Shown here piece after piece: positions 7,025-50,124 of a stretch of DNA of 64,000 nt. The stretch is from Candidatus Thermosaccharophagus yellowstonensis (lineage in GTDB: Bacteria; Armatimonadota; Fervidibacteria; Fervidibacterales; Thermosaccharophagaceae): the NCBI GenBank assembly GCA_041537945.1, contig JBGOEK010000003.1:11856-75855 (forward strand), in the 5' to 3' direction. Position 1 is the stretch's first letter. The number at the start of each line of letters is the position of its first letter. The position numbers were made by a program, and so were the translations under genes. Below the pieces are notes generated by a model. That model did no database searches and was not told the DNA's origin. It saw only the letters and a program-made list of their open reading frames with translations.

Positions 7025-7040
7025 TGGAGGGGTGCGTCTT

Positions 7041-8111: not shown

Positions 8112-8175
8112 GCGTTGGTAGCAATGTGGTTGTGTTTGTGGAACAAATCTGCCGTCTCAATGGCGGTGCATTAGC

Positions 8176-13333: not shown

Positions 13334-13353
13334 CGAGAGAGGGGGCAACGGAT

Positions 13354-15603: not shown

Positions 15604-15665
15604 AGCATAGGGTTCGGTCGCTGAATGGGAGGTGAGAAGCCCTGATCAAAGGATACAGCTCCAAA

Positions 15666-16790: not shown

Positions 16791-16836
16791 GGTTGTGCCG
16801 TTTGCACTCATAATCTCAAAACAGGGGGTGCGAGAA

Positions 16837-17307
16837 ATGAAGAAGCACTGCATGCTCATATCGCTGTTGTATGGTTGTGCTTATGTAATGTGGGCTTTTT
16901 GTGTCTCTTCCTTCCTCGCATCTTGCGGTGGGGGTGAGAAGGAATTGATACTGCCGATTGTCCCGGGGCAAAAACTTGTGAAGTTGACTGGCACCGTGCG
17001 TGATCAAGCTGGGAAACCCATAAGTGGAGCTACGATTGAAGCTCGCAGTTTACAGGATGAATTACTTGGTGAATTACTTGGGACGACAACGAGCCGTGAT
17101 GACGGGAAATGGGAGCTTAACCTTTACCTTCCTGTTGGCGTTGAAAATATAAGGCTGACGATTTCTGCTGCCGGCTATAAAGATACTACAATAAAAGTGC
17201 CACTAAGCGAAGGTTACAATCCACCTGTTGATGTAACTTTGAAGCTTTTGAGCGAGCTGACTACTGGCACTTTGATGCCACCACCTCCGCCTACCTTCTC
17301 AGAATGA
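16837..17307 (+). CDS. small lipoprotein with one CarboxypepD_reg-like domain
   Basis: ATG 16837 follows AGGGGG. Lipobox FLASCGGG. Segment LTGTVRDQAGKPISGATIEARS...DDGKWELNLYLP. Pro-rich tail. Confidence 0.6.
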   Translation: MKKHCMLISLLYGCAYVMWAFCVSSFLASCGGGEKELILPIVPGQKLVKLTGTVRDQAGKPISGATIEARSLQDELLGELLGTTTSRDDGKWELNLYLPVGVENIRLTISAAGYKDTTIKVPLSEGYNPPVDVTLKLLSELTTGTLMPPPPPTFSE

Positions 17308-34877: not shown

Positions 34878-36803
34878 ATGATGGTCAGCGGGAAGACGAC
34901 TTGTGGTTTTTGTGGTTGCGGTTGTGGTTTGTATCTTCTGCATGAGGATGGTAACGCCATTGGAGTGATACCGAGCGATAAAGACATCGTGAACGAGGGC
35001 AGGCTTTGCATACGCGGCTGGCACATCCATCAACCGTTGCGCAACACCGAAAGGATATTACACCCGCTGGTTAAGGGAGAAAGAGCAAGCTATGAGGACG
35101 CTGTCTCTTTCGTTGCTGATGTGTTGAGGAGGTATCCGCCAGAGAGGGTTGGCATCATAGGCTCTGCGAGTGCCACGAATGAGAGTTCATATGTAGTGGC
35201 GAAGTTTGCGAGGGCTGTCATCCGCACTAACAATGTTGACTTTCCGGGGCGCTCGAGGGTTACGCAAACACTTTTCCAGTTGCTTTCATCTCAAGAGGGC
35301 GCATCGGTGCTTTGCTCATTTGAAGATTTGGCGGAGGCTGATGTTTTGTTTTGCATCGGTATCGGGGAATCGGATCGCTACCCTCAAGTCACAGCTCGCA
35401 TATTCAAAGCGGTCGTAGAAGATGGCAGGCAACTGCTCCTGATTGATACATGGCAATCAGATTTCGCCCCGTATGCCTCTTTGTATCTTTCGCCAAAGCC
35501 TTTCTCTGATGAGTTTCTTCTCAGGGCGTTATCAAAAGCGCTTGACGGAAGCATACCGATGCCTTTCAGTAGTGAGCAGGTGCGCTCCATAACTGGCTTG
35601 AGCGATGAGCAAATAATGGCTGCAGCTGATTTGCTCAGCAGTGGCAGGCGAGTGGTCGCAATCTACGATACAGCATCATTAATCCACATACGCTCGCCTC
35701 ATTGCATGAATGAGCTTCTAAGGCTTTTGAGGGTGCTCAAGGGGATGGGCGCTGAGTGGTGTCGTATCCTGCCGATGCTCGAAAGGTGTAACACAGCCGG
35801 TGCTTTGCGCATGGGCGTAGCGCCAGATCTGCTCCCCGCGTTCAAGTGGGTGACGGATGCGGATGCGGTTCAAAAGACATGCTCAATTTGGGGTGTTGAT
35901 AAGCTACCACGAAACAAGGGCATGAACTTCAACCAAATGCTCATGGCAGCTGAGAGGAAGGAAATCAGCGCTCTCATCATCATCGGCGATGACATACTAA
36001 CCGATTATCCAGACCATGAACTCTTGAAGAGCGCTTTGAGCAACCTTGAACTGCTTGTCATGATAACTGCGTATCACTCACCATTGACCGAGGTAGCACA
36101 TTGCGTTTTCCCGAGAGCCATTTGGGGCGAAGTCGATGGCACATGTGTGAACATGGAAGGAAGGGTGTGCAGGTTGGTGAGCGTTTGCGAGCCGAAGGGT
36201 GATGCGAGGGATGAGTGGCAGGTGTTGTGTGATGTGGCGACGAAGCTTGGATACACGATGAGATACTCAAGCTGTGCCGAAATTGAAGATGAGCTAAAGC
36301 GCCTTGTCCCAGAATACGGTGACATCAGATTGGAGAGAGCCAACGCCAAAACATGCTTGCTTCGTGAGACATCCATAACCATCCCAACATACAGCGCACA
36401 TGGTGAGATAAGCCCACCTGCGCTCCCGAGCACTTCTGAGGAGTTTCCTTTCCTTCTCATAACTGAGCGTTATTACTTGCCATGGCATGCTGATTTGCTT
36501 GCGTTACATTCGTCGACGCTTCAACGGGAGTTCAGGTTGCGCTTCACGCCTCATGTTTTCGTCAACTCGGCTGTGGGTAGCTCCATCGGGTTAAGAGATG
36601 GAATGCCAGCCACCATCACCACACCGCATGGGAGTGCTCGTGTCACATCGATATTCAAGGAGGCGATACCATCTGGCATCGCCATCTTGCCCGAGATGTT
36701 CTTCCCACAGCTTCGGCATGTAATTGGGCGAGAGGGTGTGGATGAGCAAACTGGTGCGCCAATCTATCCTGTGGTTGTGGCGAGGTTGGAGCGAACAAGG
36801 TGA
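34878..36803 (+). CDS. FdhF-like molybdopterin-oxidoreductase-family protein lacking the Sec/Cys-His catalytic pair
   Basis: N-terminal 4Fe-4S motif CGFCGCGCG...C(44). GSASATNESSYVVAKFARAVIRTNNVDFPGRSRVTQT aligns by eye with E. coli FdhF [39 protein letters not shown]. 641 aa. Confidence 0.75.
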   Translation: MMVSGKTTCGFCGCGCGLYLLHEDGNAIGVIPSDKDIVNEGRLCIRGWHIHQPLRNTERILHPLVKGERASYEDAVSFVADVLRRYPPERVGIIGSASATNESSYVVAKFARAVIRTNNVDFPGRSRVTQTLFQLLSSQEGASVLCSFEDLAEADVLFCIGIGESDRYPQVTARIFKAVVEDGRQLLLIDTWQSDFAPYASLYLSPKPFSDEFLLRALSKALDGSIPMPFSSEQVRSITGLSDEQIMAAADLLSSGRRVVAIYDTASLIHIRSPHCMNELLRLLRVLKGMGAEWCRILPMLERCNTAGALRMGVAPDLLPAFKWVTDADAVQKTCSIWGVDKLPRNKGMNFNQMLMAAERKEISALIIIGDDILTDYPDHELLKSALSNLELLVMITAYHSPLTEVAHCVFPRAIWGEVDGTCVNMEGRVCRLVSVCEPKGDARDEWQVLCDVATKLGYTMRYSSCAEIEDELKRLVPEYGDIRLERANAKTCLLRETSITIPTYSAHGEISPPALPSTSEEFPFLLITERYYLPWHADLLALHSSTLQREFRLRFTPHVFVNSAVGSSIGLRDGMPATITTPHGSARVTSIFKEAIPSGIAILPEMFFPQLRHVIGREGVDEQTGAPIYPVVVARLERTR

Positions 36804-36839
36804 GTGAAAAATTCACCTCACTCATGGGGGGCGGGGTTC

Positions 36840-37925
36840 ATGGGCACTGTTGAAGTTGGTAGCAAGCTCACGCTCTCGAAGGGGAGGTTGAACGATTTCC
36901 TTCGTTCGCTTGATGCACCCTTAGCAGCCCCAATACGCCTTGAGCATGGCGAAGTGCATTTCGCTGTCAACCCACCGCTTGAACAAATACTTCGTGATGC
37001 TGAGTATGTGAACAGCACGATATCGCCAGTTGCCTTGCTTTTCCCGCAGACCGAAGTTCTCTTCAACTTCAGGCTCAATGGTAAACCACAACTTGAGTTC
37101 CCACCGCCTCCACAACCGTTAATCATCTTCGGCATACGCTCGTGTGATGTAGCAGCGATGCGCTACCTTGAGATGTTTTTCTCGCGCAGCTTCGTTGATA
37201 CACCGTTCTTTGAGAGGGCGAAAGTGACGACACTCATAAGCATCGCATGCCAACGCCCTGGCAAGAACTGTTTTTGCCCATGTTGTGCTGGAGGTCCATT
37301 CCTTGAGGACGGATACGACATACAACTTGTAGACTTCGGCGAGCTGTTCCTTGTTGAGGTTGGCTCAGAGAAAGGGAAGCAGTTGCTCAGCGGGCGCGAG
37401 GGTTTCTTTGAGCTTGCCTCGGAGGAACTCGTTGAGAGGCGAAATAGGCTATACGAGGAGACGCTACAGAAGTTTGAGATAGCTTCTCACATGGGGACGG
37501 GGGTTCGCAAGCTGACATCAAGGTCTGTCTCTGAGGAACTTTGGAAGATGATGGCTTCAAGGTGCATTGAGTGTGGTGGATGCGCTTTCGTTTGCCCGCT
37601 GTGCACATGCTTTGATGTTGTTGACCATAAGCTACCATCCGAAAATGATGGAGCAGTCTGTGGTTGGCGGGAGCGTTGTTGGGATTGTTGCCAGTTCGCT
37701 GGCTACTCAATGGAGGCTGCAGGCGTCAGCCCACGCCCAGATAAACTGAGCAGGTTCAAGAGGCGTTTCTACCACAAGCTCAGCTACTTCTACATGGAGA
37801 TGGATGGCAGGGTTGGTTGTGTTGGTTGTGGAAGGTGCATTCAAGTTTGCTTTGGCGTGGTTGATATGCCAGCGGTCGTCAACACATTGAGGGAGGAAAA
37901 GGTGTTCGGTGTGAGGTTGAGGTGA
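36840..37925 (+). CDS. 4Fe-4S dicluster protein, sulfhydrogenase beta (HydB)/AsrA-like
   Basis: CIECGGCAFVCPLCTCFD and CVGCGRCIQVCF cluster motifs, plus a GIRSCD region. Size and layout resemble HydB/AsrA. Start could be GTG 36804 or ATG 36840. Confidence 0.7.
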   Translation: MGTVEVGSKLTLSKGRLNDFLRSLDAPLAAPIRLEHGEVHFAVNPPLEQILRDAEYVNSTISPVALLFPQTEVLFNFRLNGKPQLEFPPPPQPLIIFGIRSCDVAAMRYLEMFFSRSFVDTPFFERAKVTTLISIACQRPGKNCFCPCCAGGPFLEDGYDIQLVDFGELFLVEVGSEKGKQLLSGREGFFELASEELVERRNRLYEETLQKFEIASHMGTGVRKLTSRSVSEELWKMMASRCIECGGCAFVCPLCTCFDVVDHKLPSENDGAVCGWRERCWDCCQFAGYSMEAAGVSPRPDKLSRFKRRFYHKLSYFYMEMDGRVGCVGCGRCIQVCFGVVDMPAVVNTLREEKVFGVRLR

Positions 37926-37955
37926 CAAGATTGAATTTCGTTGGGAGGGTTTGGT

Positions 37956-38819
37956 ATGCGTGAGCATCTCTATGAGCCAATGCTTGCGCGAATCGTTGAG
38001 GTCACAGATGAGACGCCAGATGTGAAGACATTCACGCTCCAAATCGAGGACGGTGTCATTGATTATCGACCCGGGCAGTTTGCGGAGGTTTCCGTCTTCG
38101 GGGTTGGTGAAGCGCCGTTTGGCATATCATCAAGCCCGACTTGGACAAAGCGCACCGGTTACATTCAAGTGACGGTGAGGGCTGTAGGTAAGGTAACGAG
38201 GGCTCTACATAGCCTCAAGCAAGGCGACTATGTTGGTGTAAGGGCGCCTCTTGGGAATGGCTTCCCAGTGGAGAGGGCGGAGGGCAAGAGGGTGATAATC
38301 GTTGGTGGCGGGATTGGCTTGCCACCACTGCGCTCATTGCTCAACTACATGCTGGACAACAGGGAGAGGTTCGGGAAGATAACGGTGTTATACGGTGCAC
38401 GCACCCCTGCTGATATGGTTTTCAAGCGTGAACTCGCCGAATGGTCTGCTCGCCCTGACCTTGAATATCTCGACACAGTTGATATTGCTGATGAGGAGTG
38501 GCAGAGGTTAGGAAAGAGGGTTGGGGTTGTGACGACTCTGTTCCCGATACTCGATGAGCAAAGCCCGATTGAACCGCACAATACAATCGCATTCATCTGC
38601 GGTCCTCCGATCATGATCCATTTCGTCATCCTTGAGCTTGAGAAACGGAATGTGCCTCCAGAGAACATCATCTCGACGCTTGAGCGCCACATGAAGTGCG
38701 GAGTCGGTAAGTGCGGGCACTGTGCCATAGGGCACAAGTATGTATGTGTTGATGGACCCGTGTTCTCTTGGGCTGAGATGAAAGAGCTTGAGTGGATGAG
38801 CGCAGAGAAGTCAGTTTGA
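37956..38819 (+). CDS. FAD/NAD(P)-binding oxidoreductase with C-terminal 2Fe-2S, sulfhydrogenase gamma (HydG)/AsrB/PyrK-like
   Basis: RPGQFAEVSVFGVGEAPFGISS flavin motif, IIVGGGIGLPPL nucleotide-binding motif, C-terminal CGVGKCGHCAIGHKYVCVDGPVF. Confidence 0.75.
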   Translation: MREHLYEPMLARIVEVTDETPDVKTFTLQIEDGVIDYRPGQFAEVSVFGVGEAPFGISSSPTWTKRTGYIQVTVRAVGKVTRALHSLKQGDYVGVRAPLGNGFPVERAEGKRVIIVGGGIGLPPLRSLLNYMLDNRERFGKITVLYGARTPADMVFKRELAEWSARPDLEYLDTVDIADEEWQRLGKRVGVVTTLFPILDEQSPIEPHNTIAFICGPPIMIHFVILELEKRNVPPENIISTLERHMKCGVGKCGHCAIGHKYVCVDGPVFSWAEMKELEWMSAEKSV

Positions 38820-38839
38820 TTTAGTAGCCCTTTGGTTGC

Positions 38840-39352
38840 GTGGTTGATGTAGCGATGAACGAGAAGATAGGGATTGAGAGAATTTGCGATGCGCGGTGGC
38901 GTAAGGTCGCAGTAGTGGGTATAGGGAATGAGATGCGTGGTGATGATGCCGTTGGATGTTATGTGGCGAGGAAGCTTGAAGGCATAAGCGGTGCGCTCGT
39001 CATTGATGCAGGCGATGTCCCGGAAAACTACACGCAGTTGTTGCGAGCTTATGAGCCAGATTGCATATTGCTGATTGACGCAGTTGATGTGGGCGCAAAC
39101 GCTGGGTCAATCGTCATCATGCATCGTGAGGAGCTACCACTATCCTTGTCCGTCTCAACTCATGGTATACCGCTAAGGTTGCTCGCCGATTACCTTCACC
39201 GTGAACTTGGTGCTGATGTGATGCTCATCGGCATTCAAGTTGGGACGACTTCATTTGGTGCAACTATGTGCGATGATGTGAAAGAGTCAGCCGATGTGGT
39301 GGCGGAGTTCCTTACAGCTTACTTGAGCTCTACAGGGTGTTCTGACAAATGA
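38840..39352 (+). CDS. hydrogenase maturation endopeptidase (HycI/HyaD family)
   Basis: VAVVGIGNEMRGDDAVGCYVARKL, LLIDAVD and STHGIPL motifs. Start is GTG 38840 or ATG 38855. Confidence 0.8.
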   Translation: MVDVAMNEKIGIERICDARWRKVAVVGIGNEMRGDDAVGCYVARKLEGISGALVIDAGDVPENYTQLLRAYEPDCILLIDAVDVGANAGSIVIMHREELPLSLSVSTHGIPLRLLADYLHRELGADVMLIGIQVGTTSFGATMCDDVKESADVVAEFLTAYLSSTGCSDK

Positions 39353-40320
39353 TGGTGGCTCTTTGCTTCGTCATCTCTGCACTTGTGGCGACGCCCAAAG
39401 TTTCTGCGAAAGAGCTTGGTAAAGCTACAGAGGGGGTGGCTGTTCGCAAGCTCGCAGAGGCGCAAGTCGATTCGCGTCCTGTGCTTGCGGTGCAATTCAT
39501 CGGGAACAAGTTGGCACTGTTGAGGAAGGGCGGAGATGTTGTGGCGTGGGATTTCATCAAAGGTGAGCTCAAACGCATTTTGCAATGCAATGTTAAATCG
39601 TTGCGTGGTGGCACTTTCTCAGGTGATGGAAAGTTGCTCGCATGCATCGGCGCAAGCCAAGTGGTCTCCATCTGGGATTTATTCGCTGGTAAATTGGTTG
39701 CAAAGGTAACGGGACACGGCGGGGAGATAAGGCAGATGGCTTTTTCTCATGATGGGCGGATGCTCGCTATAGCATGCGAAGGCTGTTGCAATATGGAAGG
39801 CGACACACGCATCTGGGATGCGAGGAGCGGAAGGTTGATCAGAAGGTTTAAAGGCGATGCGTTCAGCGTCACCTTCTTGAACGAATGTGAGAGGGTGGCT
39901 ATCGGTGGTGCAAAGGCTGTAGCGATTTATGATGTGAGCGATGGCAAGAAGGTTAAAGAGCTACATGTCGGCATGAAGGTAAGGGGTGTTGGCTACTTGG
40001 AAAAGGGTAAGTTGCTCATATGCGTTTCCGCTGATGGCTTACATGCGTTTGATGTTGCCACTTGGCGCAAGCAAGGGACTGCCAACCTCGGTTTAGTTGA
40101 TGCGGTTGCATTTTCATCAAACGGTTCGCTCATTGCCATCGGCACTTACGGCGAGGTTGTCCTTTTTGATGCTGAGCCGTGGAGAGTCGTTGGAAAGGTG
40201 AGTTGGGGCACACGCCCTGTCACGGCGATTGCGTTCTCACCAGATGGTTCAAAGTTTGCGTTCGGCGATGCCAGCGGTAGGGTCGCTCTGTGGATGGTTG
40301 TGAGTAAACTAAAAAGCTAA
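39349..40320 (+). CDS. WD40 beta-propeller protein with N-terminal signal-like peptide
   Basis: ATGA overlap with the protease stop. N-terminus MMVALCFVISALVATPKVSA. Repeated FSGDGKLLA..SIWDL, FSHDGRMLA..RIWDA, FSSNGSLIA and FSPDGSKFA..VALWMV blades. Confidence 0.75.
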   Translation: MMVALCFVISALVATPKVSAKELGKATEGVAVRKLAEAQVDSRPVLAVQFIGNKLALLRKGGDVVAWDFIKGELKRILQCNVKSLRGGTFSGDGKLLACIGASQVVSIWDLFAGKLVAKVTGHGGEIRQMAFSHDGRMLAIACEGCCNMEGDTRIWDARSGRLIRRFKGDAFSVTFLNECERVAIGGAKAVAIYDVSDGKKVKELHVGMKVRGVGYLEKGKLLICVSADGLHAFDVATWRKQGTANLGLVDAVAFSSNGSLIAIGTYGEVVLFDAEPWRVVGKVSWGTRPVTAIAFSPDGSKFAFGDASGRVALWMVVSKLKS

Positions 40321-40336
40321 GTGAGAGTGATGTGGG

Positions 40337-41869
40337 ATGGTTGATATGGTCACTTGGTGCATCTTGCTGATAGCAGTTCCTGCAATCGGTGGGATAGTTT
40401 GTGCTTTCCTGCCAGACAGGGCTGCGCGCTTCTTTGCCACCGTAGTGTCGTTTGCTACAGCCGTCATAGGCTTATGGCTCATCACCAATTATGGCTCTGA
40501 GGAGAACATAGTTAGCGTTGGTGGGCTTGCATGGATAAGCAAAGTTGCTGGAACGAAAGTTGACCTGTTCGGCTTTCTCATTGATCCGTTGAGCAGTATA
40601 ATGCTTTCGCTGATCGTCGTTATAGGTTTCCTTGTTGTGCTTTACTCAACTGCCTATGTCAGCGCCAACAACAAGGAACATCCAGTAGAGGAGGGAGCTT
40701 CACGCTACTTCTGCTGGATGCTCCTCTTCATTGCGTCAATGGCTGGCGTCGTCACATCTTCGACATTCTTCCAGCTCTTCATCTTTTGGGAATTAACGAC
40801 GCTGTGTTCATGGGCGCTCATCTCGTTTGACTATAACGACCCTGAGGCAGTTCGTGCGGGCTACAAGGCACTTTTGATGACGCATATTGGTGGGCTCTTC
40901 CTCATGACCATGATCGTGTTGTGTTTCGCCTTCACGAAGTCTTTCGGGTTTGACGCCATGAGGAAGCTCACACCGACGATGCAGGTTGCGCTCCTCTCCT
41001 TAGCGTTCATTGGTGCGTGGGCGAAGGCAGCTCAATTCCCATTTTACACTTGGCTTCCCGATGCTATGGTTGCGCCTACCCCTGTCAGTGCATATTTGCA
41101 CGCAGCAGCTATGGTTAAGGCTGGCATATACCTGCCAGCAAGGGTTGTCCTTGCAGCTCGCCCGTTTCTTAAGGCACTGCACCCATCTGCCATCGATACA
41201 GCTGGAATACTCATGGGCACGCTCTCAATCATAACCATCATCATCGGCTGTTACATGTTCTTCTACCAAGATGACTTGAAGCGACTGCTCGCTTTCTCAA
41301 CAATCGTTCACCTTGCTCACATCCTGATGGAATGGGCATGCGGGTCACTCGGGTGCTCAATATGCTATCAGAGTGGGTTGATACACATCATCGCTCACGG
41401 TGTGGGCAAGGGTTTGCTCTTCCTTTCCGTCGGCGCGCTCTCATACTCCACTGGCACAAGGCGCATAAGCCAGCTGAGCGGTGCTGGCTTTAAGATGCCA
41501 CTTGTGGCGGTTAGCTTCCTTATCGGAGCGCTCACCATATCGGGCATACCGCCATTCGCTGGCTTCTGGAGCAAGTTCTACTTCATCTTAGGTGCGATAA
41601 CGCTGGGCAAGTTCGGGATATTGTTTGTCATAGTCGGTCTCATCGATGCCGTCATCAGGTTTGCGTGGTTCATTTATGTTGCGCACAAGGTGTTCGCTGG
41701 TGAGCCATCTGAGATGGTGCGGAGCGCTAAAGGGACTTCGCCAGCGATTAACATAGCTATCGCCATCTTGATCATACTTTGCTTCATCTCAACGCCGTTT
41801 GCGGTGCAGATGTCTGCAACTGCGGTTGGGATCTGCACTGAGGGGACTTGCTCTGTGGTGGCACATTGA
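40337..41869 (+). CDS. antiporter-like membrane subunit (NuoL/HyfD-HyfF type)
   Basis: 510 aa. FIFWELTTLCSWALISF and KAAQFPFYTWLPDAMVAPTPVSAYLHAAAMVKAGIY. Confidence 0.85.
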   Translation: MVDMVTWCILLIAVPAIGGIVCAFLPDRAARFFATVVSFATAVIGLWLITNYGSEENIVSVGGLAWISKVAGTKVDLFGFLIDPLSSIMLSLIVVIGFLVVLYSTAYVSANNKEHPVEEGASRYFCWMLLFIASMAGVVTSSTFFQLFIFWELTTLCSWALISFDYNDPEAVRAGYKALLMTHIGGLFLMTMIVLCFAFTKSFGFDAMRKLTPTMQVALLSLAFIGAWAKAAQFPFYTWLPDAMVAPTPVSAYLHAAAMVKAGIYLPARVVLAARPFLKALHPSAIDTAGILMGTLSIITIIIGCYMFFYQDDLKRLLAFSTIVHLAHILMEWACGSLGCSICYQSGLIHIIAHGVGKGLLFLSVGALSYSTGTRRISQLSGAGFKMPLVAVSFLIGALTISGIPPFAGFWSKFYFILGAITLGKFGILFVIVGLIDAVIRFAWFIYVAHKVFAGEPSEMVRSAKGTSPAINIAIAILIILCFISTPFAVQMSATAVGICTEGTCSVVAH

Positions 41870-41909
41870 AGCCAATTTAAAGCTCGGCTTTTGGGAGGCG
41901 ATAGGTGAG

Positions 41910-43967
41910 ATGCAGATCTCGCAGGAGATGCTTGTGATGATCATCCTCGGAGTTTTTGGCGCTGGTGCTTTCCTTACCGCTGTAACTTCACCGCTTCGTC
42001 GCTTGACAGCGTGGCTTGGGTTCATCTTCGCCTTCTGTGGCTCTTTGCTTTGCCTCGTCGTCGCTACTCGTGCATTTTATGCACCTGCTATCGAGCAAGG
42101 ACATTCTTACCTTCCATTGCCGGTCGTAAATGCGGCGTTCCAAATACAGGTTGATGAGCTTAGCGCTCTCTTCCTCATCATCATCGGCTTGCTCGGCATC
42201 TGCACTTCACTTTACTCTGTTGGCTACATCACACACGACTACTACAAGGAAGAGCACCTTGTCCGCTACTATCCGTTTTTGATGTTCTTCCTCGCTGGCA
42301 TGGTCGGCGTTGTAACCTGCTGGGACATGTTTTACTTCCTCGTCTTCTGGGAAGTGATGACGCTTGCTTCCTATGTGCTCGTCATTTACGAAAAGAGCAA
42401 CCCCATATCGCTTCGTGCCGGCTTGAAGTATTTCGTGATGACGCACATCGGCACTACTGGCATCGTCTGTGGCGTGATTATCGTCTGGCTTTTCTGTCGT
42501 TCGTTTAACTTTGAATCCCTCAAGGTCGGCATGGAAATGCTTTATACGGAACGCCCTTCGTTGCTTCACCTTGTGCTATTGTTGCTTTTTGTTGGCTTCG
42601 CTACGAAGGCTGCACTCTTCCCATTCGGCGACTGGCTCCCTGATGCTCACCCTGCAGCGCCATCCGCTATCAGCTCTTTGCTCTCTGGCGTGATGATAAA
42701 GATGGGTGTCTATGGCATCCTACGCACATTCGTCTGGATGATGCCCTCATCTCACCACCTAAGCACATGGGGTTTTGTTGTAGCGCTGTTTGGCACTGTC
42801 TCGCTTTTCATATGCACTGTAGCTGCTTTAATCCAAAACGATTCAAAACGCATGCTCGCCTACAGCAGTATGGGTCAAATGGGCTATATCTGCTTGGGCA
42901 TAGGAATTGGGATGGGCTTCATGCGCGTCTCGCCGGGTTTAAGCGCGCTCGGCTTCATAGCTGGTTTGTATCACCTGATCAATCATGCGTGTTTCAAAGG
43001 TCTCCTCTTCTTAAACGCTGGCTCAGTTTTGATACGCACTGGCACGCGCAACATGGGCACGCTCGGTGGCTTGTGGCGCTTCATGCCCACAACAGCTTTC
43101 ACAACTCTTATCGCCGCACTCGCGATTTCTGGCGTGCCGCCGATGAACGGGTTTGTGAGCAAGTGGTTGATCTACAATGCTTCCATTATGGGTGGTCTCC
43201 AAGTCCCGATATACCTTGCGTGTTGCATCGCTGCGGTGTTCATCTCCACTGTCACGCTCGCTTATTCTATCAAGCTCATGGGGATATTCATTAGCATGCC
43301 GTCAAAGCTCGTTAGTCAGCTCGAGAAGGAGCTTAGAGAGGTTGACTGGACTATGGTTGTCCCGCAGGTTGTGCTTGCTCTGATATGCATTGCTCTTGGT
43401 CTCTTTCCAAACCTCGTTTTGCCTGTAGTGTATCGTGCAGTGAATGCGTTGCGCCCCGATTTCATGCCGCCGTTTGATTCGCTGTTTGTATGGATGCCTT
43501 TGTCGGTTGGGATAAGCGTTGGCGAGGGAGTCACTGGAGCTTTCTCTCCCCTTGTATACTTGCTTGCGTTCTTGGTTTGTATGCTCATCCCGTTTGCGCT
43601 CTACAAGCTTGCTGGTGCGAAAGTGCGCTACGCATCGCCATGGGCATGTGGGGAGCTCCACAGCAGTGAGGAACTACGCTATCGTGTTGAGAGCTTCTAC
43701 ACGCCCTTCAGGGGTTTCCTTTCGTTCAGGGTGGGTAGGAAGCGCGTGACATCACTTTACCCGACTTTGCCGAAGCCGAGGGCGCCTTGGGTTGCCAAGA
43801 TGCGCATCATCTTTGAAGTTGATAGGCTCTATGAAGCTGTGATTCGTGTGGGCGCGAAGGCTTGCGAATGGTTTAGCACAACGCATGCTGGCATACCACA
43901 GCTTTATGTCCTGTGGATGGCTATCGGCATCCTTTTCGCCATAGCTTTGCTTTACCTTCTTTCGTGA
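41910..43967 (+). CDS. hyfB: hydrogenase-4 component B / HycC-like antiporter subunit with C-terminal extension
   Basis: 685 aa from ATG 41910. FWEVMTLASYVLVIYE and TKAALFPFGDWLPDAHPAAPSAISSLLSGVMIKMGVYGILR. The long C-terminal extension resembles HyfB. The ORF-track start at 41799 overlaps the preceding gene. Confidence 0.85.
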   Translation: MQISQEMLVMIILGVFGAGAFLTAVTSPLRRLTAWLGFIFAFCGSLLCLVVATRAFYAPAIEQGHSYLPLPVVNAAFQIQVDELSALFLIIIGLLGICTSLYSVGYITHDYYKEEHLVRYYPFLMFFLAGMVGVVTCWDMFYFLVFWEVMTLASYVLVIYEKSNPISLRAGLKYFVMTHIGTTGIVCGVIIVWLFCRSFNFESLKVGMEMLYTERPSLLHLVLLLLFVGFATKAALFPFGDWLPDAHPAAPSAISSLLSGVMIKMGVYGILRTFVWMMPSSHHLSTWGFVVALFGTVSLFICTVAALIQNDSKRMLAYSSMGQMGYICLGIGIGMGFMRVSPGLSALGFIAGLYHLINHACFKGLLFLNAGSVLIRTGTRNMGTLGGLWRFMPTTAFTTLIAALAISGVPPMNGFVSKWLIYNASIMGGLQVPIYLACCIAAVFISTVTLAYSIKLMGIFISMPSKLVSQLEKELREVDWTMVVPQVVLALICIALGLFPNLVLPVVYRAVNALRPDFMPPFDSLFVWMPLSVGISVGEGVTGAFSPLVYLLAFLVCMLIPFALYKLAGAKVRYASPWACGELHSSEELRYRVESFYTPFRGFLSFRVGRKRVTSLYPTLPKPRAPWVAKMRIIFEVDRLYEAVIRVGAKACEWFSTTHAGIPQLYVLWMAIGILFAIALLYLLS

Positions 43968-43995
43968 ACTACGAAGCTTTGAGGGGTGAGCGCTC

Positions 43996-45789
43996 ATGAC
44001 TTCTCGTGAGTTAATGCGACGCCTGCGCGAAGGGTTGGGCGAAAAAGTGATTGAGTGCTGGGAACCGAGGGATGGAAGGGTGTTCGTTAAGGTCTCACCG
44101 AGCGACATCGTTACAGCGTGCGACTATGCATTCAACACACTTAAAGCGCGCTACATGACCACATGCGCAACTGATGACAGATGGCGAAATGGCAAGTTCA
44201 CCGTAACGCATTTCTTCTCGCTCGATGCGGACAAGCTTTTCCTCTCCGTGCGTTGCGAAGTTGACCCTGAAAACCCAGTGTTGCCGTCGATCACCCCGCT
44301 AATACCCGGTGCTGAATGGGCTGAGAGGGAGCAACAGGATTTGGTTGGTGTTAAGTTTGATGGTCATCCAGACCCGAGGAGGCTCGTTCTACCCGATGAC
44401 TTCCCGCCAGACTTGCATCCGCTACGAAAGGATTACCCATACAACTATCGCCCTGAGCCTGATATGCGTGGCAAGGTGCCGATGAAAGAGCCACCCGAGG
44501 GAGCAACTGTTGTGGCAGTTGGTCCGTTCTTCCCAGTGCTTGAGGAACCAGCCTACTTCAGGCTTTTCGTCGAGGGTGAGACAATAGTTGGTTGCGACTA
44601 CCGTGGCTTTTATAACCATCGTGGCATTGAGAAACTCGGTGACAGCAAGCTTACATTCAACCAAATTGTTTTCCTCGCCGAAAGGATATGAGGGATATGA
44701 GGCTTCATACACAGCACGGTGTGCTGTGAGGCAACAGAAAACGCTCTCGGAATAAGAGCACCAAGGAGGGCAAGGCTCATAAGGAGCATAATGCTCGAGA
44801 TTGAGCGCATACATAGCCACCTGCTCTGGCTCGGTATAGCTGGGCACATAATCGGGTTTGACACAGTGCTCATGCAAGCTTGGCGGATAAGAGAGCCAGT
44901 CATGTGGCTCGCCGAGTATATCACGGGCAATAGGAAAACTTACGGAATGAACATCGTGGGCGGCGTTAGGCGAGATATAACGAGGGAGAAGCACGAGCGC
45001 ATCCTTGAAGTGATGAAGCGAGTTGAGGAAGAAACTGTTGCAGTCATAAGAGCAGTTGAGGGTGATACGATGCTTCATGTGAGGCTTCGCGGGGTCGGAT
45101 ACCTTTCACCAGAGGATGCGAGAGCAATGTGCGTTGTCGGTCCAACTGCAAGGGGCTCTAACATCGCGATTGATGCGCGTGTTGATCATCCGTATGCTGG
45201 CTACGATGAGCTTGTCCCAGAGAAGAAGGTGCATGATGAGTGCGACATCTGGGCAAGGACACTCGTCAGGCTTGAGGAGACAATCGAATCAGTCAGGCTG
45301 GTTAGGGAGGGCATAAAAGCTCTTCAAGATATGCCCGAGGGCGAGATAGTGCTCAACATAACTGAGGAAGTCCCAGAGGGGCTTGAGGGCATATCCGTTG
45401 TTGAGGCGCCGAGGGGAGAATGCATCCACTATGTCATAACGAGCGCTGAGAACAGACCACACAGGTGGCGTGTGCGAGCACCATCTTACATGAACATACA
45501 CGCATTGCCAGTTATGTTCAAGAACAAGGATGGAGGCATACCATCGGAGCCGTTCAGCAGGGCAAACATCGCTGACATACCGATAATCATAGGCAGTGTT
45601 GACCCTTGCTTCTCGTGCACTGAGAGGGTTGAAGTGGTTGATGTGAAAAAGAAGGAAGTGCGCTTCTACACGAGGAACGAGTTGATCGAGCTCTGCAGGC
45701 TCAAGGCTCAGGAGCTGTTCAATAGGCGCTCAATAACAGTTGGCGAGCTTGGTGGCTCTGCTAAACAACCAATGGAGAGGCAACATTGA
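43996..45789 (+). CDS. hyfG: group-4 [NiFe]-hydrogenase large subunit (NuoC-NuoD fusion, HycE/HyfG-like) with two in-frame TGA codons at the N-terminal Ni-ligand Cys positions
   Basis: One reading frame of 597 sense positions, interrupted only by TGA at 44689-44691 and 44698-44700. The ORF track splits it into 43996-44691 and 44719-45789, which are in the same frame. NuoC part: PGAEWAEREQQDLVGVKFDGHPDPRRLVLPDD. NuoD/HycE part: GPFFPVLEEPAYFRLFVEGE, YNHRGIEKL, LAERI-*-GI-*-GFIHS, LEIERIHSHLLWLG, VEAPRGECIHY. C-terminal motif is DPCFSCTER. Confidence 0.85.
44710..44728 (+). promoter_or_regulatory. SECIS-like RNA hairpin immediately 3' of the two TGA codons
   Basis: CACAGCAC-GGT-GTGCTGTG forms a perfect 8-bp stem (44710-44717 pairing with 44721-44728) with a GGU apical loop. 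It begins 9 nt after the second TGA and 18 nt after the first. Confidence 0.55.
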
Positions 45790-45832
45790 TGCCTACGAAA
45801 AAAATTGCACTCTATTAGAGGGTGATGCAGTG

Positions 45833-46744
45833 ATGGAGAGGTTAGGCTATGCGGTGTTGAATGTGGTCGTTGTGCTTTTCTTTGCGCCGTTGTGTGAGGG
45901 CTTCGTGCGCAAGTATATCCGTGCCAACTTGGCTCACTCAAGGAGAGGTCCACTCGTTGGCATCTGGCAACCGTTCTATGACTTGCTAAAGCTCTTTGCG
46001 AAGGAAGACATACGCGTTGGTGGAGCACTCCAAACGGTCATGCCGTATATAGCCTTTAGTTCGATGTTGGTTGCCTCCCTTTTCCTGCCGCTTTGTGGCT
46101 ATGCACCGCTTGATGGATTTGGGGATCTGATCGTCTTCGTATACACTGTTAGTCTGTTTGCGATATCGCTTGCTGTTTTGGCGCTTGACACTGGCTCTCC
46201 ATATTCAAGCATTGGTGCGCTGAGGGAGATAATGCTCATGACGCTTGTTGAGCTTATATTCATCACATCCCTCATTTGCGGGGCTGTCTGTGCACACACT
46301 CTCAGGCTTTCTGGAATAATCCTTTGGTATCGCATGCGTTTCTTCTCGCTCCCGATGCTCATCGCTGCGGGTGTTGTCTTCATGGCGATGCTGGCTCAAT
46401 TTGGGCGTCTCCCATTTGACATACCTGAGGCAGAGCAGGAGATAATAGGCGGTCCATTCATGGAAGTTTCAGGTCCGAGGCTCGCCTTGCTGAAGTGGGC
46501 AGTCTATATGAGGCAGTTTATCAGCGCAAGCCTCTTTGCCACTGTCTTCATACCTTGGTGCTTAACTGGGGTGTTTGTCATTGACCTAATCATCACGCTC
46601 GTCAAGGTGCTCATCACTTTCGTTCTTGTGACGCTCGTTGAGGTGCTCTCGCCAAGGCTTAGGGTTGATCAGGCTCTCAACTTCTACCTTGGTGTCTTTC
46701 TTACTTCGGCAATCGCTATCGCCATTGCTTATGTTGCTCCATAA
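45833..46744 (+). CDS. hyfC: HycD/HyfC (NuoH-like) membrane subunit
   Basis: FFAPLCEGFVRKYIRANLAHSRRGPLVGIWQPFYDLLKLFAKED and the LPFDIPEAEQEIIGGPFMEVSG motif. 303 aa from ATG 45833. Confidence 0.85.
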   Translation: MERLGYAVLNVVVVLFFAPLCEGFVRKYIRANLAHSRRGPLVGIWQPFYDLLKLFAKEDIRVGGALQTVMPYIAFSSMLVASLFLPLCGYAPLDGFGDLIVFVYTVSLFAISLAVLALDTGSPYSSIGALREIMLMTLVELIFITSLICGAVCAHTLRLSGIILWYRMRFFSLPMLIAAGVVFMAMLAQFGRLPFDIPEAEQEIIGGPFMEVSGPRLALLKWAVYMRQFISASLFATVFIPWCLTGVFVIDLIITLVKVLITFVLVTLVEVLSPRLRVDQALNFYLGVFLTSAIAIAIAYVAP

Positions 46745-46782
46745 GGCTTAAAGCGATTCAACTTTCATAGGGGGGCAACGAC

Positions 46783-47295
46783 ATGATAGGTAGCAAGTTG
46801 AAGGAGCTGATGATTGCGCTTCGTGGTGGCGCTCCAAGACCGCTCGTCGTGACATTACCGTATCCGCTTGGACCGGGCGCCGAAGTGCCAGAAGGCTTCA
46901 GAGGAAAGGTTGAAGTTGATGTTTCAAAGTGCGTCGGGTGTGGTGGCTGTGCGAATGTTTGCCCATCAAGGTGCATACTCATTGAGGACACATCACAACT
47001 ATGGCGCAAGATGACCATAATGCGTGAGAGGTGCACTTACTGCGCACGCTGTCAGGAGGTTTGCCAAGAGAAAGCTATAACACTGACATGTGAGTTTGAG
47101 CTTGCCACAGATGACCCAGCCGACCTCACCGACACATGGGAAGTCTTCATGGCTACATGCTCACGATGTGGGAGATGCTTCAAACCTAAGACAGTCTTGG
47201 ATAAGATGATGGAAGTGGGTTTCAAGCCACCGATGGAGAAGCGTTACGGAGCATATGCTATGTCGCCAGCCAAAGAGGCACTTGAGGACTGTTGA
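46783..47295 (+). CDS. hyfH: 4Fe-4S ferredoxin subunit (HycF/HyfH/NuoI-like)
   Basis: CVGCGGCANVCP and CTYCARCQEVC motifs, plus an extra CSRCGRC. Confidence 0.8.
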   Translation: MIGSKLKELMIALRGGAPRPLVVTLPYPLGPGAEVPEGFRGKVEVDVSKCVGCGGCANVCPSRCILIEDTSQLWRKMTIMRERCTYCARCQEVCQEKAITLTCEFELATDDPADLTDTWEVFMATCSRCGRCFKPKTVLDKMMEVGFKPPMEKRYGAYAMSPAKEALEDC

Positions 47296-47309
47296 GAGGT
47301 GAGCATACC

Positions 47310-47990
47310 ATGCCTGCCATCCAAGGCATAGATGTGCTTGCATTGCTCATGATAGCACATCTTCTTGCATCCCTTGTCGCATCCGAGCTTCGCAACCTGC
47401 GCCTCAGCGCTTGGGCACTCGTTGTCCAAGCATTCTTCTTGGCTTGCATAATAGCGTCATACGGTTTCGTTTGGAACAACCCAACGCTCTTCATCTGGGC
47501 TTCTGTTACAGTGCTGACGAAGGTTATCATCATCCCCGCCCTCTTGCTCCATCACATAAGAGTTACAGGGCTCACTATGGAGATACGCCCTCTGATAGGG
47601 TTGAGGGTTTCGGTTCTGATGAGCGTCTTTTTAGTTGTGGCGCTCTACTGGCTCTTCCGCACTTACATCTACTTCATCGCCCCAACCATAGCAGCAATGA
47701 TGGAGCCAGCCCGCTCAAACTTGGCTATGGCATTCTGCATCTTCTCACTCGGCATGTATGTGCTTATCACGCGCAGGGATGTTGTTAAAGTGGTAGTCGG
47801 GTTCATCCTGCTTGAAAATGGTGCTCATCTGGCTCTCATCACACTCGCACCGACACTCCCAGCGACGACAAAGCTCGGCATATGGACGAATGTTATCATC
47901 GCTGCGTGGTTGCTTATCAAGCTCGCTGAAGGAATTTACAAAGCGCTTGGTGTTGTCGATACTTTGACTCTATCAGAGTTGAAGCGCTGA
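47310..47990 (+). CDS. hyfE: hydrogenase-4 membrane subunit E
   Basis: LFIWASVTVLTKVIIIPALL and GFILLENGAHLALI align by eye with E. coli HyfE LLIWSASAFITKVLLVP and YCLMENGSHLVLA. 226 aa. Confidence 0.8.
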   Translation: MPAIQGIDVLALLMIAHLLASLVASELRNLRLSAWALVVQAFFLACIIASYGFVWNNPTLFIWASVTVLTKVIIIPALLLHHIRVTGLTMEIRPLIGLRVSVLMSVFLVVALYWLFRTYIYFIAPTIAAMMEPARSNLAMAFCIFSLGMYVLITRRDVVKVVVGFILLENGAHLALITLAPTLPATTKLGIWTNVIIAAWLLIKLAEGIYKALGVVDTLTLSELKR

Positions 47991-48048
47991 GGTGGTTTGA
48001 ACAGCACTGCCATAGTGAAGTTGGTTCAAACCAAGCGAGGTGTGAGAG

Positions 48049-49572
48049 ATGGTGGTCGAATCGTTGCTCCCAATACTTGTCTTTGTCATACCGACGGCGT
48101 GTGGCATCATAAGCCTTTCGCTAAGGCGAATAAACTCAATCGTTCATGGGACGATAGCTGTTGCTGGGCTTCTCGGGACGCTTTGCGTTGCGATACTCAT
48201 AACCACGGAAGTCCTGCGGGGGAATGTGCTGACTGCATTCAGCAACACGGTCTATGCTGATGGTCTGAGTGCTTTGATGGAACTGCTCGGCTGTGGTATG
48301 GGCATACTCGTTGCCATATATTCGCTACGCTACATACCAGTTCATGTGGCTCATCGCTCCGATGCACCCCAAAGGTTAAGCACATACTATGGGCTGTTGC
48401 TCCTCTTCCTCGGGATGATGAACTGGACATGCGTGACAAACAACATAGTGTGGCTCTATGTGACGCTTGAGGCAACTACACTTGCAACTGCCTTCTTGGT
48501 CACATTCTACTGGGACAGGCGTTCGCTTGAGGCTGGTTACAAATACCTCATGCTCGTAACCGTCGGTGTCATCTTCTCGCTGTTTGGGCTTGTGCTGATC
48601 TATGCGGGCGCAATTGAACTGCCAGAGATGAAGGGTCGTAATGTGCTCCTCATAACCGAGCTTAGCAGGGTCGGTCCGAAGATATCATACAGCGTTGTTT
48701 TGTTGGCTAACGCTCTTATACTCGCAGGGTTTGGCGCAAAGGCTGGGCTTGTCCCGTTCCACGCTTGGCTTCCCGATGCACACGCAGAAGCACCAGCTCC
48801 AATTAGCGCATTGCTCTCTGGCATCGTGATAAAGGTTGGCGCATACGCGATGGCAAGGACTGTCACCATATTCGCACCACAATACCCTGCGGTTGTCGTC
48901 TTCGTAGCCATCATGGCATCGCTCAGCATGGTCACTGGTATACTCATGGCGCTTGTTCAGGATGACATAAAGCGGATGCTCGCATACTCATCCGTGAGCC
49001 AGATAGGCTATGTTGTTGAGGGGCTCGGGTTTGGAACATACCTTGGCATATACGGTGCTCTGTTCCACTTGATGAACCACACCATCGTTAAGGCGTTGCT
49101 CTTCCTAACCGCCGGTGCTGTAGCGCATGTCACTGGGACGCGCAGGATGAGTGAGCTTGGTGGGCTTGCGCGCCACATGCCTGTGGTTGCAGTTTGCTTC
49201 TTCATTGGCGCCATCGCCATCGGTGGGTTGCCACCGTTCAACATGTTCATGAGCAAGTTCACGCTCTTCATGGCTGCAGCAGATGTGGGGCTCTTGTGGG
49301 CTGCGGTGATAGCCGTATTCACAGGCTTGTTAACTGTTGCTTGCTTCTTGAGGGCTGCAGCGAGGATATTCTGGGGCGCACCATGCAAGGTTATCCAACC
49401 TGCTGCGGTCGCAGCAAACGGTGGTGAAGTGCGTCTCCCAATAACCATGCTCATACCCATGGTCATCCTCGCCATCTTGACCATCGCATTGGGCATCTAC
49501 CCGGGGCTTGTTCATCCGCTACTTGACAGTGCAACTATGTGCATCCTGAAGATACTTCATGTAGGGGTGTGA
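48049..49572 (+). CDS. antiporter-like membrane subunit (HyfD/HyfF, NuoM/N type)
   Basis: 507 aa. LYVTLEATTLATAFLV and GAKAGLVPFHAWLPDAHAEAPAPISALLSGIVIKVGAYAMAR. Confidence 0.85.
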   Translation: MVVESLLPILVFVIPTACGIISLSLRRINSIVHGTIAVAGLLGTLCVAILITTEVLRGNVLTAFSNTVYADGLSALMELLGCGMGILVAIYSLRYIPVHVAHRSDAPQRLSTYYGLLLLFLGMMNWTCVTNNIVWLYVTLEATTLATAFLVTFYWDRRSLEAGYKYLMLVTVGVIFSLFGLVLIYAGAIELPEMKGRNVLLITELSRVGPKISYSVVLLANALILAGFGAKAGLVPFHAWLPDAHAEAPAPISALLSGIVIKVGAYAMARTVTIFAPQYPAVVVFVAIMASLSMVTGILMALVQDDIKRMLAYSSVSQIGYVVEGLGFGTYLGIYGALFHLMNHTIVKALLFLTAGAVAHVTGTRRMSELGGLARHMPVVAVCFFIGAIAIGGLPPFNMFMSKFTLFMAAADVGLLWAAVIAVFTGLLTVACFLRAAARIFWGAPCKVIQPAAVAANGGEVRLPITMLIPMVILAILTIALGIYPGLVHPLLDSATMCILKILHVGV

Positions 49573-49614
49573 TTGAGCTTGTGCCAAGCAACTTGAGCAA
49601 AAGGAGGTATTGGC

Positions 49615-50124
49615 ATGGTTGGATGGTTCAGGAGGCTTTGTGAGAAGGCGTTTCCGAAGGCGTTGTGGGTCTTCCACGCAAACACGGGCGCATGCAACGG
49701 ATGTGACATTGAGGTCATAAATGTGCTCACGCCGTATTATGATGCTGAGCGTTTTGGCATAAGGCTTGTTGGCTCCCCAAGGCATGCCGATGTCATCATC
49801 GTTACAGGTCCTGTTACAAGGCAATCTGCACCAGTCCTTGAACGCCTCATTGATTCAGTTCCGTCGCCAAAGCTCATCCTTGCAGTTGGCTCTTGCCCAA
49901 CTGGTGGCAACATCTGGTTTGACTCATACGCAACTTGTGGTGGTCTATCAAGCGTCATCAAGGGCAAGGACATACCGGTGGTCTATGTTCCCGGATGCCC
50001 ACCTCGCCCAGAGGCAATACTTTACGGTGTGGCTGTAGCGCTCGGTCTGGTCAAAAAGAAAGTGGCAAGCAAGCACATGAGGCAGGAACTGCTCCCACCG
50101 AGACAGGAAGCAAAAGCACATTAG
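49615..50124 (+). CDS. hyfI: [NiFe]-hydrogenase small subunit (HycG/HyfI, NuoB-like)
   Basis: GACNGCDIEV, GSPRHADVIIVTGPVT, GSCPTGGNIW and VPGCPPRPEAI supply the four Cys of the proximal 4Fe-4S cluster. Confidence 0.88.
   Translation: MVGWFRRLCEKAFPKALWVFHANTGACNGCDIEVINVLTPYYDAERFGIRLVGSPRHADVIIVTGPVTRQSAPVLERLIDSVPSPKLILAVGSCPTGGNIWFDSYATCGGLSSVIKGKDIPVVYVPGCPPRPEAILYGVAVALGLVKKKVASKHMRQELLPPRQEAKAH

Follow-up and report, generated by a model that had tools for sequence, protein, structure and literature searches.

The large-subunit gene and its two in-frame TGA codons

The DNA analysed here (called the window: a stretch of 64,000 nucleotides from contig JBGOEK010000003.1 of Candidatus Thermosaccharophagus yellowstonensis, Armatimonadota) carries the gene of a hydrogenase large subunit that contains two in-frame TGA codons. 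Directly downstream of these codons, within the coding sequence, lies a short hairpin. Judged from the sequence comparisons given below, this hairpin appears to be a functional recoding element of the selenocysteine insertion sequence (SECIS) type, a reading to which we assign a probability of about 0.85. Such an element had been proposed in a preliminary description of the window, which was made from its letters only. The features concerned are the following.

43996-45789, plus strand: fused NuoC/NuoD-type catalytic large subunit of a Group 4 [NiFe] hydrogenase (HycE homologue), read through two in-frame TGAs and ending at its own TGA stop
44689-44691, plus strand: TGA1, the first in-frame TGA; Cys in 119/119 homologues and in the alignment with HycE; TGA kept in 15 other genomes and one Logan contig
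44698-44700, plus strand: TGA2, the second in-frame TGA; second Cys of RxCGxC, Ni-Fe bridging, corresponding to C244 of E. coli HycE
44710-44728, plus strand: SECIS-like hairpin with an 8-bp stem and a GGU loop, encoding H-S-T-V-C-C-(E)
44710-44717, plus strand: 5' arm of the hairpin, CACAGCAC
44718-44720, plus strand: loop of the hairpin, GGT
44721-44728, plus strand: 3' arm of the hairpin, GTGCTGTG
44710-44716 with 44722-44728, plus strand: conserved core, a 7-bp stem with the pentaloop CGGUG at 44717-44721
44718, plus strand: invariant loop G, third base of Thr ACG and second of the five pentaloop bases; counted from the U of each TGA, it lies at +20 for TGA2 and at +29 for TGA1
44722-44724, plus strand: Cys TGC at an otherwise invariant Tyr (TAC) position; its G pairs with C 44715 of Ser AGC (C-G in place of U-A)
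44696-44709, plus strand: weak 5-bp hairpin TATGA-GGCT-TCATA, containing TGA2
45601-45618, plus strand: C-terminal Ni-binding motif DPCFSC with ordinary Cys codons (TGC...TGC), the Sec site of classical [NiFeSe] enzymes

The translated gene matches the Pfam families Complex1_30kDa, Complex1_49kDa and NiFeSe_Hases. Its matches to subunit 5 of the E. coli formate hydrogenlyase (HycE, 7Z0S_E; E = 7e-122) and to Pyrococcus MbhL (E = 2.5e-66) identify it as the catalytic large subunit of a Group 4 [NiFe] hydrogenase. The motif ERICGICG is found in all 119 full-length homologues (up to 64% identity). The window protein reads ERI-(TGA)-GI-(TGA)-GFIHSTVCC at this site, and both TGAs align with the Cys of ERI-C-GI-C in 119/119 homologues; E. 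coli HycE has DRVCGICGFAHSTAY at the same motif. The two TGAs thus occupy the positions of the two N-terminal Ni-ligand cysteines, one of which is a terminal Ni ligand while the other bridges Ni and Fe. The reading frame is open and homologous on both sides of the TGA pair.

Gene callers report this gene as two pieces (P0011 being the C-terminal one, of 356 amino acids), as if it were a pseudogene or the product of sequencing errors, with the TGAs as true stops and the hairpin as irrelevant. However, such an origin would take two independent nonsense changes placed exactly on both ligand Cys codons. The frame is moreover intact and conserved on both sides in 15 genomes of several phyla and in an independent Logan assembly, and a complete set of maturation and subunit genes surrounds the gene. 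Based on the conserved frame, the recurrence in 15 genomes and the surrounding gene set, this explanation was rejected as close to inconceivable.

The same verdict applies to an altered genetic code, in which UGA would be sense throughout the genome and a SECIS would not be needed. Nothing beyond the in-frame TGA itself speaks for it. TGA is the commonest stop codon in the window and ends 23 of the 36 Pfam-supported open reading frames (ORFs), this gene included, so the organism does not generally read TGA as sense. No other TGA in the window is flanked by open frames on both sides, and none combines such frames with a hairpin of the bacterial SECIS (bSECIS) kind. A genome-wide sense UGA was therefore dismissed, its probability being negligible. 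Further selenoprotein genes in the window were also considered and rejected: the same-frame ORF pairs that are split by a TGA are ordinary adjacent genes.

The hairpin and the bacterial SECIS consensus

On re-reading the sequence, the position of the hairpin, its perfect 8-bp stem, its GGU loop and its spacers (9 nt from TGA2 and 18 nt from TGA1 to the start of the stem) proved to be as first described. RNAfold, which the preliminary description had suggested for this region, was applied to 44680-44770 and places the hairpin in both the minimum-free-energy and the centroid structure. The z-score is -3.0, and an equally good fold was obtained with 0 of 200 dinucleotide shuffles. The energy of the hairpin alone is -11.9 kcal/mol when folded and -10.8 kcal/mol when the bare hairpin is evaluated.

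It had further been claimed that a perfect 8-bp stem at this place is not expected by chance. This has to be qualified, as perfect 8-bp hairpins are themselves common: the window contains 8 of them, against 6.9 +/- 3.0 in first-order Markov simulations. What is unusual is the position behind the TGAs, since the probability that a perfect 8-bp hairpin starts inside a given 20-nt span is about 0.0025. A hairpin that satisfies simplified bSECIS criteria is found 3' of 65 of the 2,833 TGA trinucleotides in the window (2.3%).

The bSECIS consensus of Zhang and Gladyshev (restated in PMC13188914) comprises a loop of 3-9 nt, an upper stem of 4-16 bp, a G at one of the first two loop positions (usually N1-G-[G/U]-N-N2), a UGA-to-loop spacing of 16-37 nt and an energy of -7.5 kcal/mol or lower. 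The element in the window agrees with each of these features. Both TGAs stand at Cys positions (119/119 homologues and E. coli HycE). The loop and stem measure 3 nt (with G at its first two positions) and 8 bp in the window, or 5 nt and 7 bp in the conserved form; if the closing C-G pair opens, as the preliminary description had already considered, the loop becomes C-G-G-U-G, which is this conserved form and fits N1-G-[G/U]-N-N2 with N1 and N2 pairing. The loop lies 16-17 nt from TGA2 and 25-26 nt from TGA1, and the energy is -10.8 to -11.9 kcal/mol. The element is also kept in orthologues with UGA and relaxed in those with Cys codons (see below). The geometry that had been read from the sequence therefore holds for the second UGA, and the first UGA falls within the allowed 16-37 nt as well.

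The best-known element of this type is that of E. coli fdhF, which likewise lies in the coding region directly 3' of the UGA. Counted from the U of TGA2, the hairpin in the window covers positions 13-31 with the loop G-G-U at 21-23. The fdhF mini-helix spans 15-31 with G23/U24 (PMC8659212), so both end at position 31. In the SelB literature, the conserved loop G is found about 20 nt downstream of the UGA (PMC4605307). With a position close to that of fdhF and a loop G that follows this rule, the geometry is optimal for TGA2. The two elements also differ. The stem in the window is perfect, with neither the bulged U17 nor the extended lower helix of fdhF; its loop is GGU or CGGUG instead of GGUC; and it follows two UGAs instead of one. 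The likeness to fdhF that had been noted earlier thus extends to the position and the loop G/U with respect to TGA2, but not to the bulge. The hairpin follows the general bacterial SECIS pattern and not the fdhF subtype, as the bulged U is missing. No Rfam family reaches its gathering score over the whole window, and nothing relevant is found at E <= 10 on 44660-44780.

Relatives with the TGA pair

Relatives were sought by scanning one genome per species (185,579 species) for the pattern GCN GAR MGN RTN TGA GGN RTN TGA GG. The scan yielded 19 loci, of which 15 represent the same hydrogenase gene and 4 are chance matches. In addition, a Logan contig (L020) from an independent assembly is 99% identical to the window and keeps the TGA pair. 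Viral contigs were scanned for the Cys-type motif and gave no match. The genes with the TGA pair fall into three clades, some members being metagenome-assembled genomes (MAGs).

Clade A, Armatimonadota: window, L002, L015, L018 and L020; 88-99% protein identity within the clade
Clade B, Desulfobacterota-like MAGs: L001, L007, L008, L009, L011, L014, L017 and L019; 75-96% within the clade
Clade C, Dehalococcoidaceae and Acidobacteriota: L003, L004, L005 and L012; 75-82% within the clade

At the DNA level, Candidatus Thermosaccharophagus gerlachensis (L018) shares 87% identity with the window, while Ca. T. tengchongensis (L015) and Armatimonadota SKYB128 (L002) share 73-74%. Between the clades the protein identity is 55-61%, which is no closer than that of the window to its best Cys-type homologue (64%).

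Conservation of the stem and of its codons

For the hairpin alignment, 14 distinct sequences with the TGA pair were used (the window and 13 others, from all three clades). The 7-bp stem with a 5-nt loop is found in 14/14, with 98% of the alignment cells paired. The stem is made up of alignment columns 25-31 with 37-43, corresponding to 44710-44716 with 44722-44728 in the window. The sole unpaired cases are two clade C sequences that have Gln CAG in place of Glu GAG at the base of the stem; with this C-C mismatch, their stems reach only -4.5 kcal/mol. Clades B and C have CGUGU or CGUGC as the loop and clade A has CGGUG; the G at the second loop position is invariant (14/14). The eighth pair, a C-G that closes the loop down to GGU, is found in clade A only. 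A lack of any conserved stem in TGA-containing homologues, along with a genome devoid of SelB or its equivalent, had been named beforehand as an outcome that would speak against a SECIS; the stem is instead shared by all three clades.

Compensatory changes, which had been put forward as a further check, are seen at one pair. Pair 30-38 is U-A in 11 sequences (Ser AGU/Tyr UAC) and C-G in 3 (Ser AGC/Cys UGC), so that it changes on both sides. This change from U-A to C-G is a single evolutionary event and therefore counts as one datum.

Stronger evidence than this covariation comes from selection at synonymous sites. Between the clades, codon identity was determined at positions with the same amino acid, in segments of 12 codons. 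It is 0.355 over the whole gene and rises to 0.72, the highest value of the gene, in the segments over the TGA pair and the hairpin. Within the clades, a segment of 14 codons was used that begins one codon ahead of TGA1, stops where the stem ends and excludes the TGA codons. It ranks 1/557 in clade A, 3/550 in clade B and 1/553 in clade C. The RNA of the stretch with the TGA pair and the hairpin is under selection.

The weak 5-bp hairpin around TGA2, which the preliminary description had seen next to the main one, is present at 44696-44709 but is not conserved outside the clade of the window. Over the alignment, 74% of its cells are paired, its pair 15-20 forms in only 3/14 sequences and RNAalifold does not predict it. 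It was rejected as a part of the element on account of its restriction to this clade and probably lies outside the functional structure. A possible second SECIS, GCTCT-CGGAATA-AGAGC at about 44743-44759, was discarded because it is broken in L002.

Homologues with Cys codons as a control

The hairpin could also be a by-product of protein coding. The peptide H-S-T-x-Y-C-E predisposes the RNA to a palindrome, because its amino acids fix or nearly fix five of the seven stem pairs. If H-S-T-x-Y/C-C-E were all that the palindrome reflects, it would have no function as RNA, and the UGAs would be read in some other way or not at all. In line with this, a partial stem with a loop of 9 nt is seen in one Cys-type gene (L022), and SECIS-like folds have also been noted in Cys-type relatives by others (PMC13582414).

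The control for this explanation consisted of the DNA of 8 Cys-type genes, 57-68% identical to one another. None of them (0/8) forms the 7-8-bp stem, and the mean hairpin energy is -3.6 kcal/mol, compared to -8.8 kcal/mol in the TGA-type genes (Mann-Whitney p = 0.0007). The difference lies in the codons that the protein leaves free. The Thr codon is ACG in 14/14 TGA-type genes compared to 2/8 Cys-type genes, which mostly use ACC. The last Cys is encoded by TGT in 14/14 TGA-type genes compared to 1/7 Cys-type genes, where TGC is found in 6 (the eighth gene has Val). For Ser, AGT is used in 11/11 sequences of clades B and C (clade A having AGC) and in 0/8 Cys-type genes, which have AGC, TCC or TCG. 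Completed stem and loop G occur together only where the ligand codons are TGA. A synonymous peak is missing as well in the Cys-type genes: the 14-codon segment ranks 134/401, with a codon identity of 0.42 as against 0.39 over the whole gene. The same palindrome in homologues with Cys codons, the other outcome that the preliminary description had regarded as damaging, was thus not encountered.

The coding by-product was rejected on three grounds: the free codon choices by which stem and loop are completed are fixed among the TGA-type genes and rare among those of the Cys type, the synonymous peak is confined to the TGA-type genes, and a conserved Tyr has been replaced in such a way that the pair stays (see below). 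It is accordingly considered very improbable, and a selected recoding element is the preferred explanation of the hairpin.

Two observations on codon usage were made in the course of this comparison. The first concerns L023 (1681-1770, P0010), a Cys-type gene whose product is 62% identical to the window protein. Around the motif it has the unusual ATA and ACG codons of the clade of the window; its two ligand codons are TGC, and its stem is broken (5/7 pairs). It may represent a Sec-to-Cys revertant or a pre-adapted sister lineage. The second concerns the Ile codons at 44686-44688, 44695-44697 and 44707-44709, which are ATA in 13/14, 11/14 and 9/14 of the TGA-type genes, respectively. At the same positions, the Cys-type genes have ATA in 1/8 and otherwise ATC or ATT. 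As a matter of speculation, the ATA codons may provide a rare-codon pause before the UGA or a weak AU pairing.

Replacement of an invariant tyrosine in the Armatimonadota clade

At +11 from the first ligand, a Tyr is found in 119/119 Cys-type homologues; E. coli HycE has it too, as do clades B and C of the TGA type. In the Armatimonadota clade (window, L002, L015, L018 and L020) this position is occupied by Cys. The predicted stem energy at 37 C changes from -7.6 to -11.9 kcal/mol with the C-G pair that results from the Tyr-to-Cys replacement and the extra closing pair. The window type is also predicted to be the more stable one at higher temperatures, with -4.3 vs -2.0 kcal/mol at 70 C and -2.0 vs -0.3 kcal/mol at 80 C. 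By this prediction it remains folded at 70-80 C, unlike the stems of the other clades. Going by these calculated energies, it looks like selection for RNA stability has overridden a conserved Tyr in this hot-spring lineage.

Proposed decoding of the two UGAs

From what is known of SelB biology, the following course of events can be proposed. The hairpin would reach the mRNA entrance of the ribosome, where SelB, carrying GTP and the charged tRNA, would bind its apical loop C-G-G-U-G with the fixed G 44718. SelB would then deliver the tRNA to the UGA in the A-site, which would be read as an amino acid and not as a stop. The hairpin would be used for TGA1 first and, three codons later, for TGA2. 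The product would contain U-G-I-U in place of C-G-I-C, with one of the new residues as terminal Ni ligand and the other as ligand bridging Ni and Fe. The binding of SelB, the read-through, the inserted residue (Sec, or Cys via tRNA(ReC)) and the use of one element for both codons are all derived from this general biology. Most likely, the same hairpin serves both UGAs. We hold it to be probable that Sec is inserted at the second UGA at least, though with less confidence than the recoding function as such.

Indirect support for the use of Sec among these loci comes from L004, a Dehalococcoidaceae MAG of clade C. The gene cluster of its UXXU hydrogenase holds a classical Sec-type Fdh with an in-frame TGA at the catalytic position (ARL-U-HSPTV; about 6107, minus strand). 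Behind this TGA stands a 6-bp stem whose loop is GGUCU, resembling that of fdhF. In the sister loci L003, L005 and L012 the catalytic position is Cys.

Several points weigh against a SECIS-type element that inserts Sec at both codons. Apart from the predisposing peptide and the partial stem of L022 discussed above, the covariation is thin (one pair, one evolutionary event). The 5' arm has no equivalent of the bulged U17 of fdhF (PMC8659212). What is known of this class of hydrogenases comes entirely from sequence analysis, with no reported experiment on any of them. The 64-kb window contains no selA, selB, selC, selD or tRNA gene, and neither do the adjoining stretches of about 10 kb on either side; these flanks were read from near-identical metagenome contigs and contain ATP synthase, helicase and other housekeeping genes. 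ARAGORN detected no tRNA in the window, the flanks or the related loci, although it may miss tRNAs of the 8/4 type. As no sel genes are nearby, the Sec competence of the organism rests on the literature. The distance between UGA and SECIS is critical in E. coli, which makes the use of the hairpin by TGA1, 9 nt further away, uncertain.

Lastly, Cys may be inserted at one UGA or at both, since tRNA(ReC)-like genes have been described, besides the canonical selC, in 5/5 Armatimonadota genomes with this type of hydrogenase (PMC13582414). The hairpin would then be used in the same manner, but with a selC*-type tRNA(Cys), i.e. tRNA(ReC), that is charged by CysRS and delivered by SelB, leaving the enzyme partly or wholly ligated by ordinary Cys. 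The biology of selC* tRNA(Cys) has been described (PMC7609411, PMC5389517). According to PMC13582414, tRNA(ReC)-like genes occur in about 56% of the genomes with two Sec positions in the motif (UXXU genomes) and in about 2.3% of the other Sec-type genomes. The extra 9 nt between TGA1 and the hairpin would leave room for a second decoding mode. However, neither the window nor its flanks contain a selC*-type tRNA (with the same reservation about ARAGORN and 8/4-type tRNAs), and keeping a costly UGA and SECIS just for the insertion of Cys seems pointless unless it is conditional. Furthermore, clade C is not among the tRNA(ReC)-carrying UXXU lineages of PMC13582414, yet it shows the same arrangement, and one of its members has the adjacent Sec-type Fdh. 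Overall, the insertion of Cys is an unlikely but serious alternative to that of Sec.

A more far-reaching picture can be drawn, though only tentatively. One hairpin might drive two SelB-dependent decodings 9 nt apart, so that Ni would be held by two selenolates, a terminal and a bridging one. Or the two UGAs might be read differently, e.g. the first as Cys via tRNA(ReC) and the second as Sec, depending on the supply of selenium. In the hot-spring Armatimonadota lineage, selection for the stability of the SECIS would also have overwritten the invariant Tyr, an RNA signal thereby dictating the protein sequence beside the active site. Taken together, this picture is possible rather than probable.

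If both UGAs were read as Sec, the Ni-Fe site would carry selenium at positions unseen in characterised hydrogenases, within an energy-converting complex of the formate-hydrogenlyase kind. In a Group 1 enzyme, catalysis and O2 tolerance are altered by engineered Cys-to-Sec swaps at these positions (PMC8020662). The locus also offers a natural test case for the reach of a SECIS (with UGAs 9 and 18 nt off) and for the sharing of UGA between tRNA(Sec) and tRNA(ReC).

Relation to known [NiFeSe] hydrogenases and other selenoproteins

In the [NiFeSe] hydrogenases of the classical kind, which belong to Groups 1 and 3 (for example those of Desulfomicrobium baculatum, D. vulgaris Hys and Methanococcus Vhu/Fru), a UGA-encoded residue likewise takes the place of a Ni-ligating Cys. 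However, their Sec is found in the C-terminal motif DPUxxC, which in the window is DPCFSC with Cys codons. In the window the recoding concerns the N-terminal motif, involves two positions and affects a membrane-bound energy-converting enzyme.

Two UGAs 9 nt apart in a CxxC-derived motif, followed by a SECIS in the coding region, are also known from other predicted bacterial UxxU selenoproteins, namely a thiol:disulfide oxidoreductase of the Prx-like type, a metal-binding/mercuric-reductase-like protein and the FmdB family (PMC13188914, PMC9312934). These belong to unrelated families, and in none of them do the two residues form a metal-cluster ligand pair of a hydrogenase.

The closest description is that of Takano, Inoue, Aono, Ochi and Mihara (Front Microbiol, 3 Sep 2026; PMC13582414), who reported UXXU-type Group 4b [NiFeSe] hydrogenases from sequence analysis. 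Their dataset comprises 47 non-redundant Sec variants from nine phyla, Armatimonadota among them, and the Group 4b UXXU types are found in Armatimonadota, Desulfobacterota, JAPLJL01 and Acidobacteriota. The Group 4b genes have SECIS-like stem-loops in which the conserved guanine is the third base of Thr ACG, while in Cys-type relatives the conservation of this guanine is about 26%. About 90% of the Sec-type genomes contain selABCD. Around half of the 4b gene clusters encode Fdh-like proteins without a catalytic Cys/Sec together with homologues of SHI beta/gamma, and the cluster in the window matches this arrangement.

The enzyme in the window shares the phylum, the SECIS guanine and the type of cluster with this class and differs from it in nothing essential. 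The gene has UGA at both Cys of the N-terminal RxCGxC and Cys in the C-terminal DPCxxC, as in the Group 4 UXXU enzymes. From the composition of its cluster and the description of the Armatimonadota clade in PMC13582414, we infer that it belongs to HydDB subgroup 4b. The finding is thus already known, because UXXU Group 4b enzymes and their SECIS in Armatimonadota are described in that paper. The same is true of the notion that one SECIS may serve two UGAs, which the preliminary description had thought notable and which Takano et al. had already proposed. What is added here are the profiles of selection at synonymous sites, the compensatory change from U-A to C-G, the exchange of an otherwise invariant Tyr within the Armatimonadota clade and the predicted stability of the stem at high temperature.

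The surrounding gene cluster

The large-subunit gene is part of a hydrogenase gene cluster (34878-50124, plus strand), which was annotated by Pfam, NCBIfam and an Fdh alignment. The other genes of the cluster are listed below.

34878-36803, plus strand: Fdh-like protein without catalytic Cys/Sec-His
36804-37925, plus strand: sulfhydrogenase beta-like subunit
37941-38819, plus strand: sulfhydrogenase gamma-like subunit
38840-39352, plus strand: HycI protease
39349-40320, plus strand: WD40 protein
40337-41869, plus strand: antiporter-like subunit
41799-43967, plus strand: antiporter-like subunit
45740-46744, plus strand: NuoH/HyfC-like subunit
46783-47295, plus strand: ferredoxin
47292-47990, plus strand: NuoK/HyfE-like subunit
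48049-49572, plus strand: antiporter-like subunit
49615-50124, plus strand: NuoB-type small subunit

This is the composition of a Group 4 hydrogenase, with a NuoD-related large subunit of the membrane-bound type and with NuoB-, NuoH- and NuoK-like subunits, antiporter-like subunits and HycI in the cluster.

The Fdh-like molybdopterin protein (34878-36803) has R-V at the position where T. kivui FdhF has the catalytic C-H and E. coli FdhH has U-H. Going by this alignment, it is probably unable to oxidise formate. The WD40 beta-propeller gene (39349-40320) sits between hycI and the first antiporter-like gene; the closest Cys-type cluster (L021) has no gene there.

Elsewhere in the window, at 6963-17307, large proteins of the secreted type with CarboxypepD_reg and PEGA domains are encoded in a row. 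Two long ORFs of this row, at 8176-11466 and 13330-15603, have no Pfam match.

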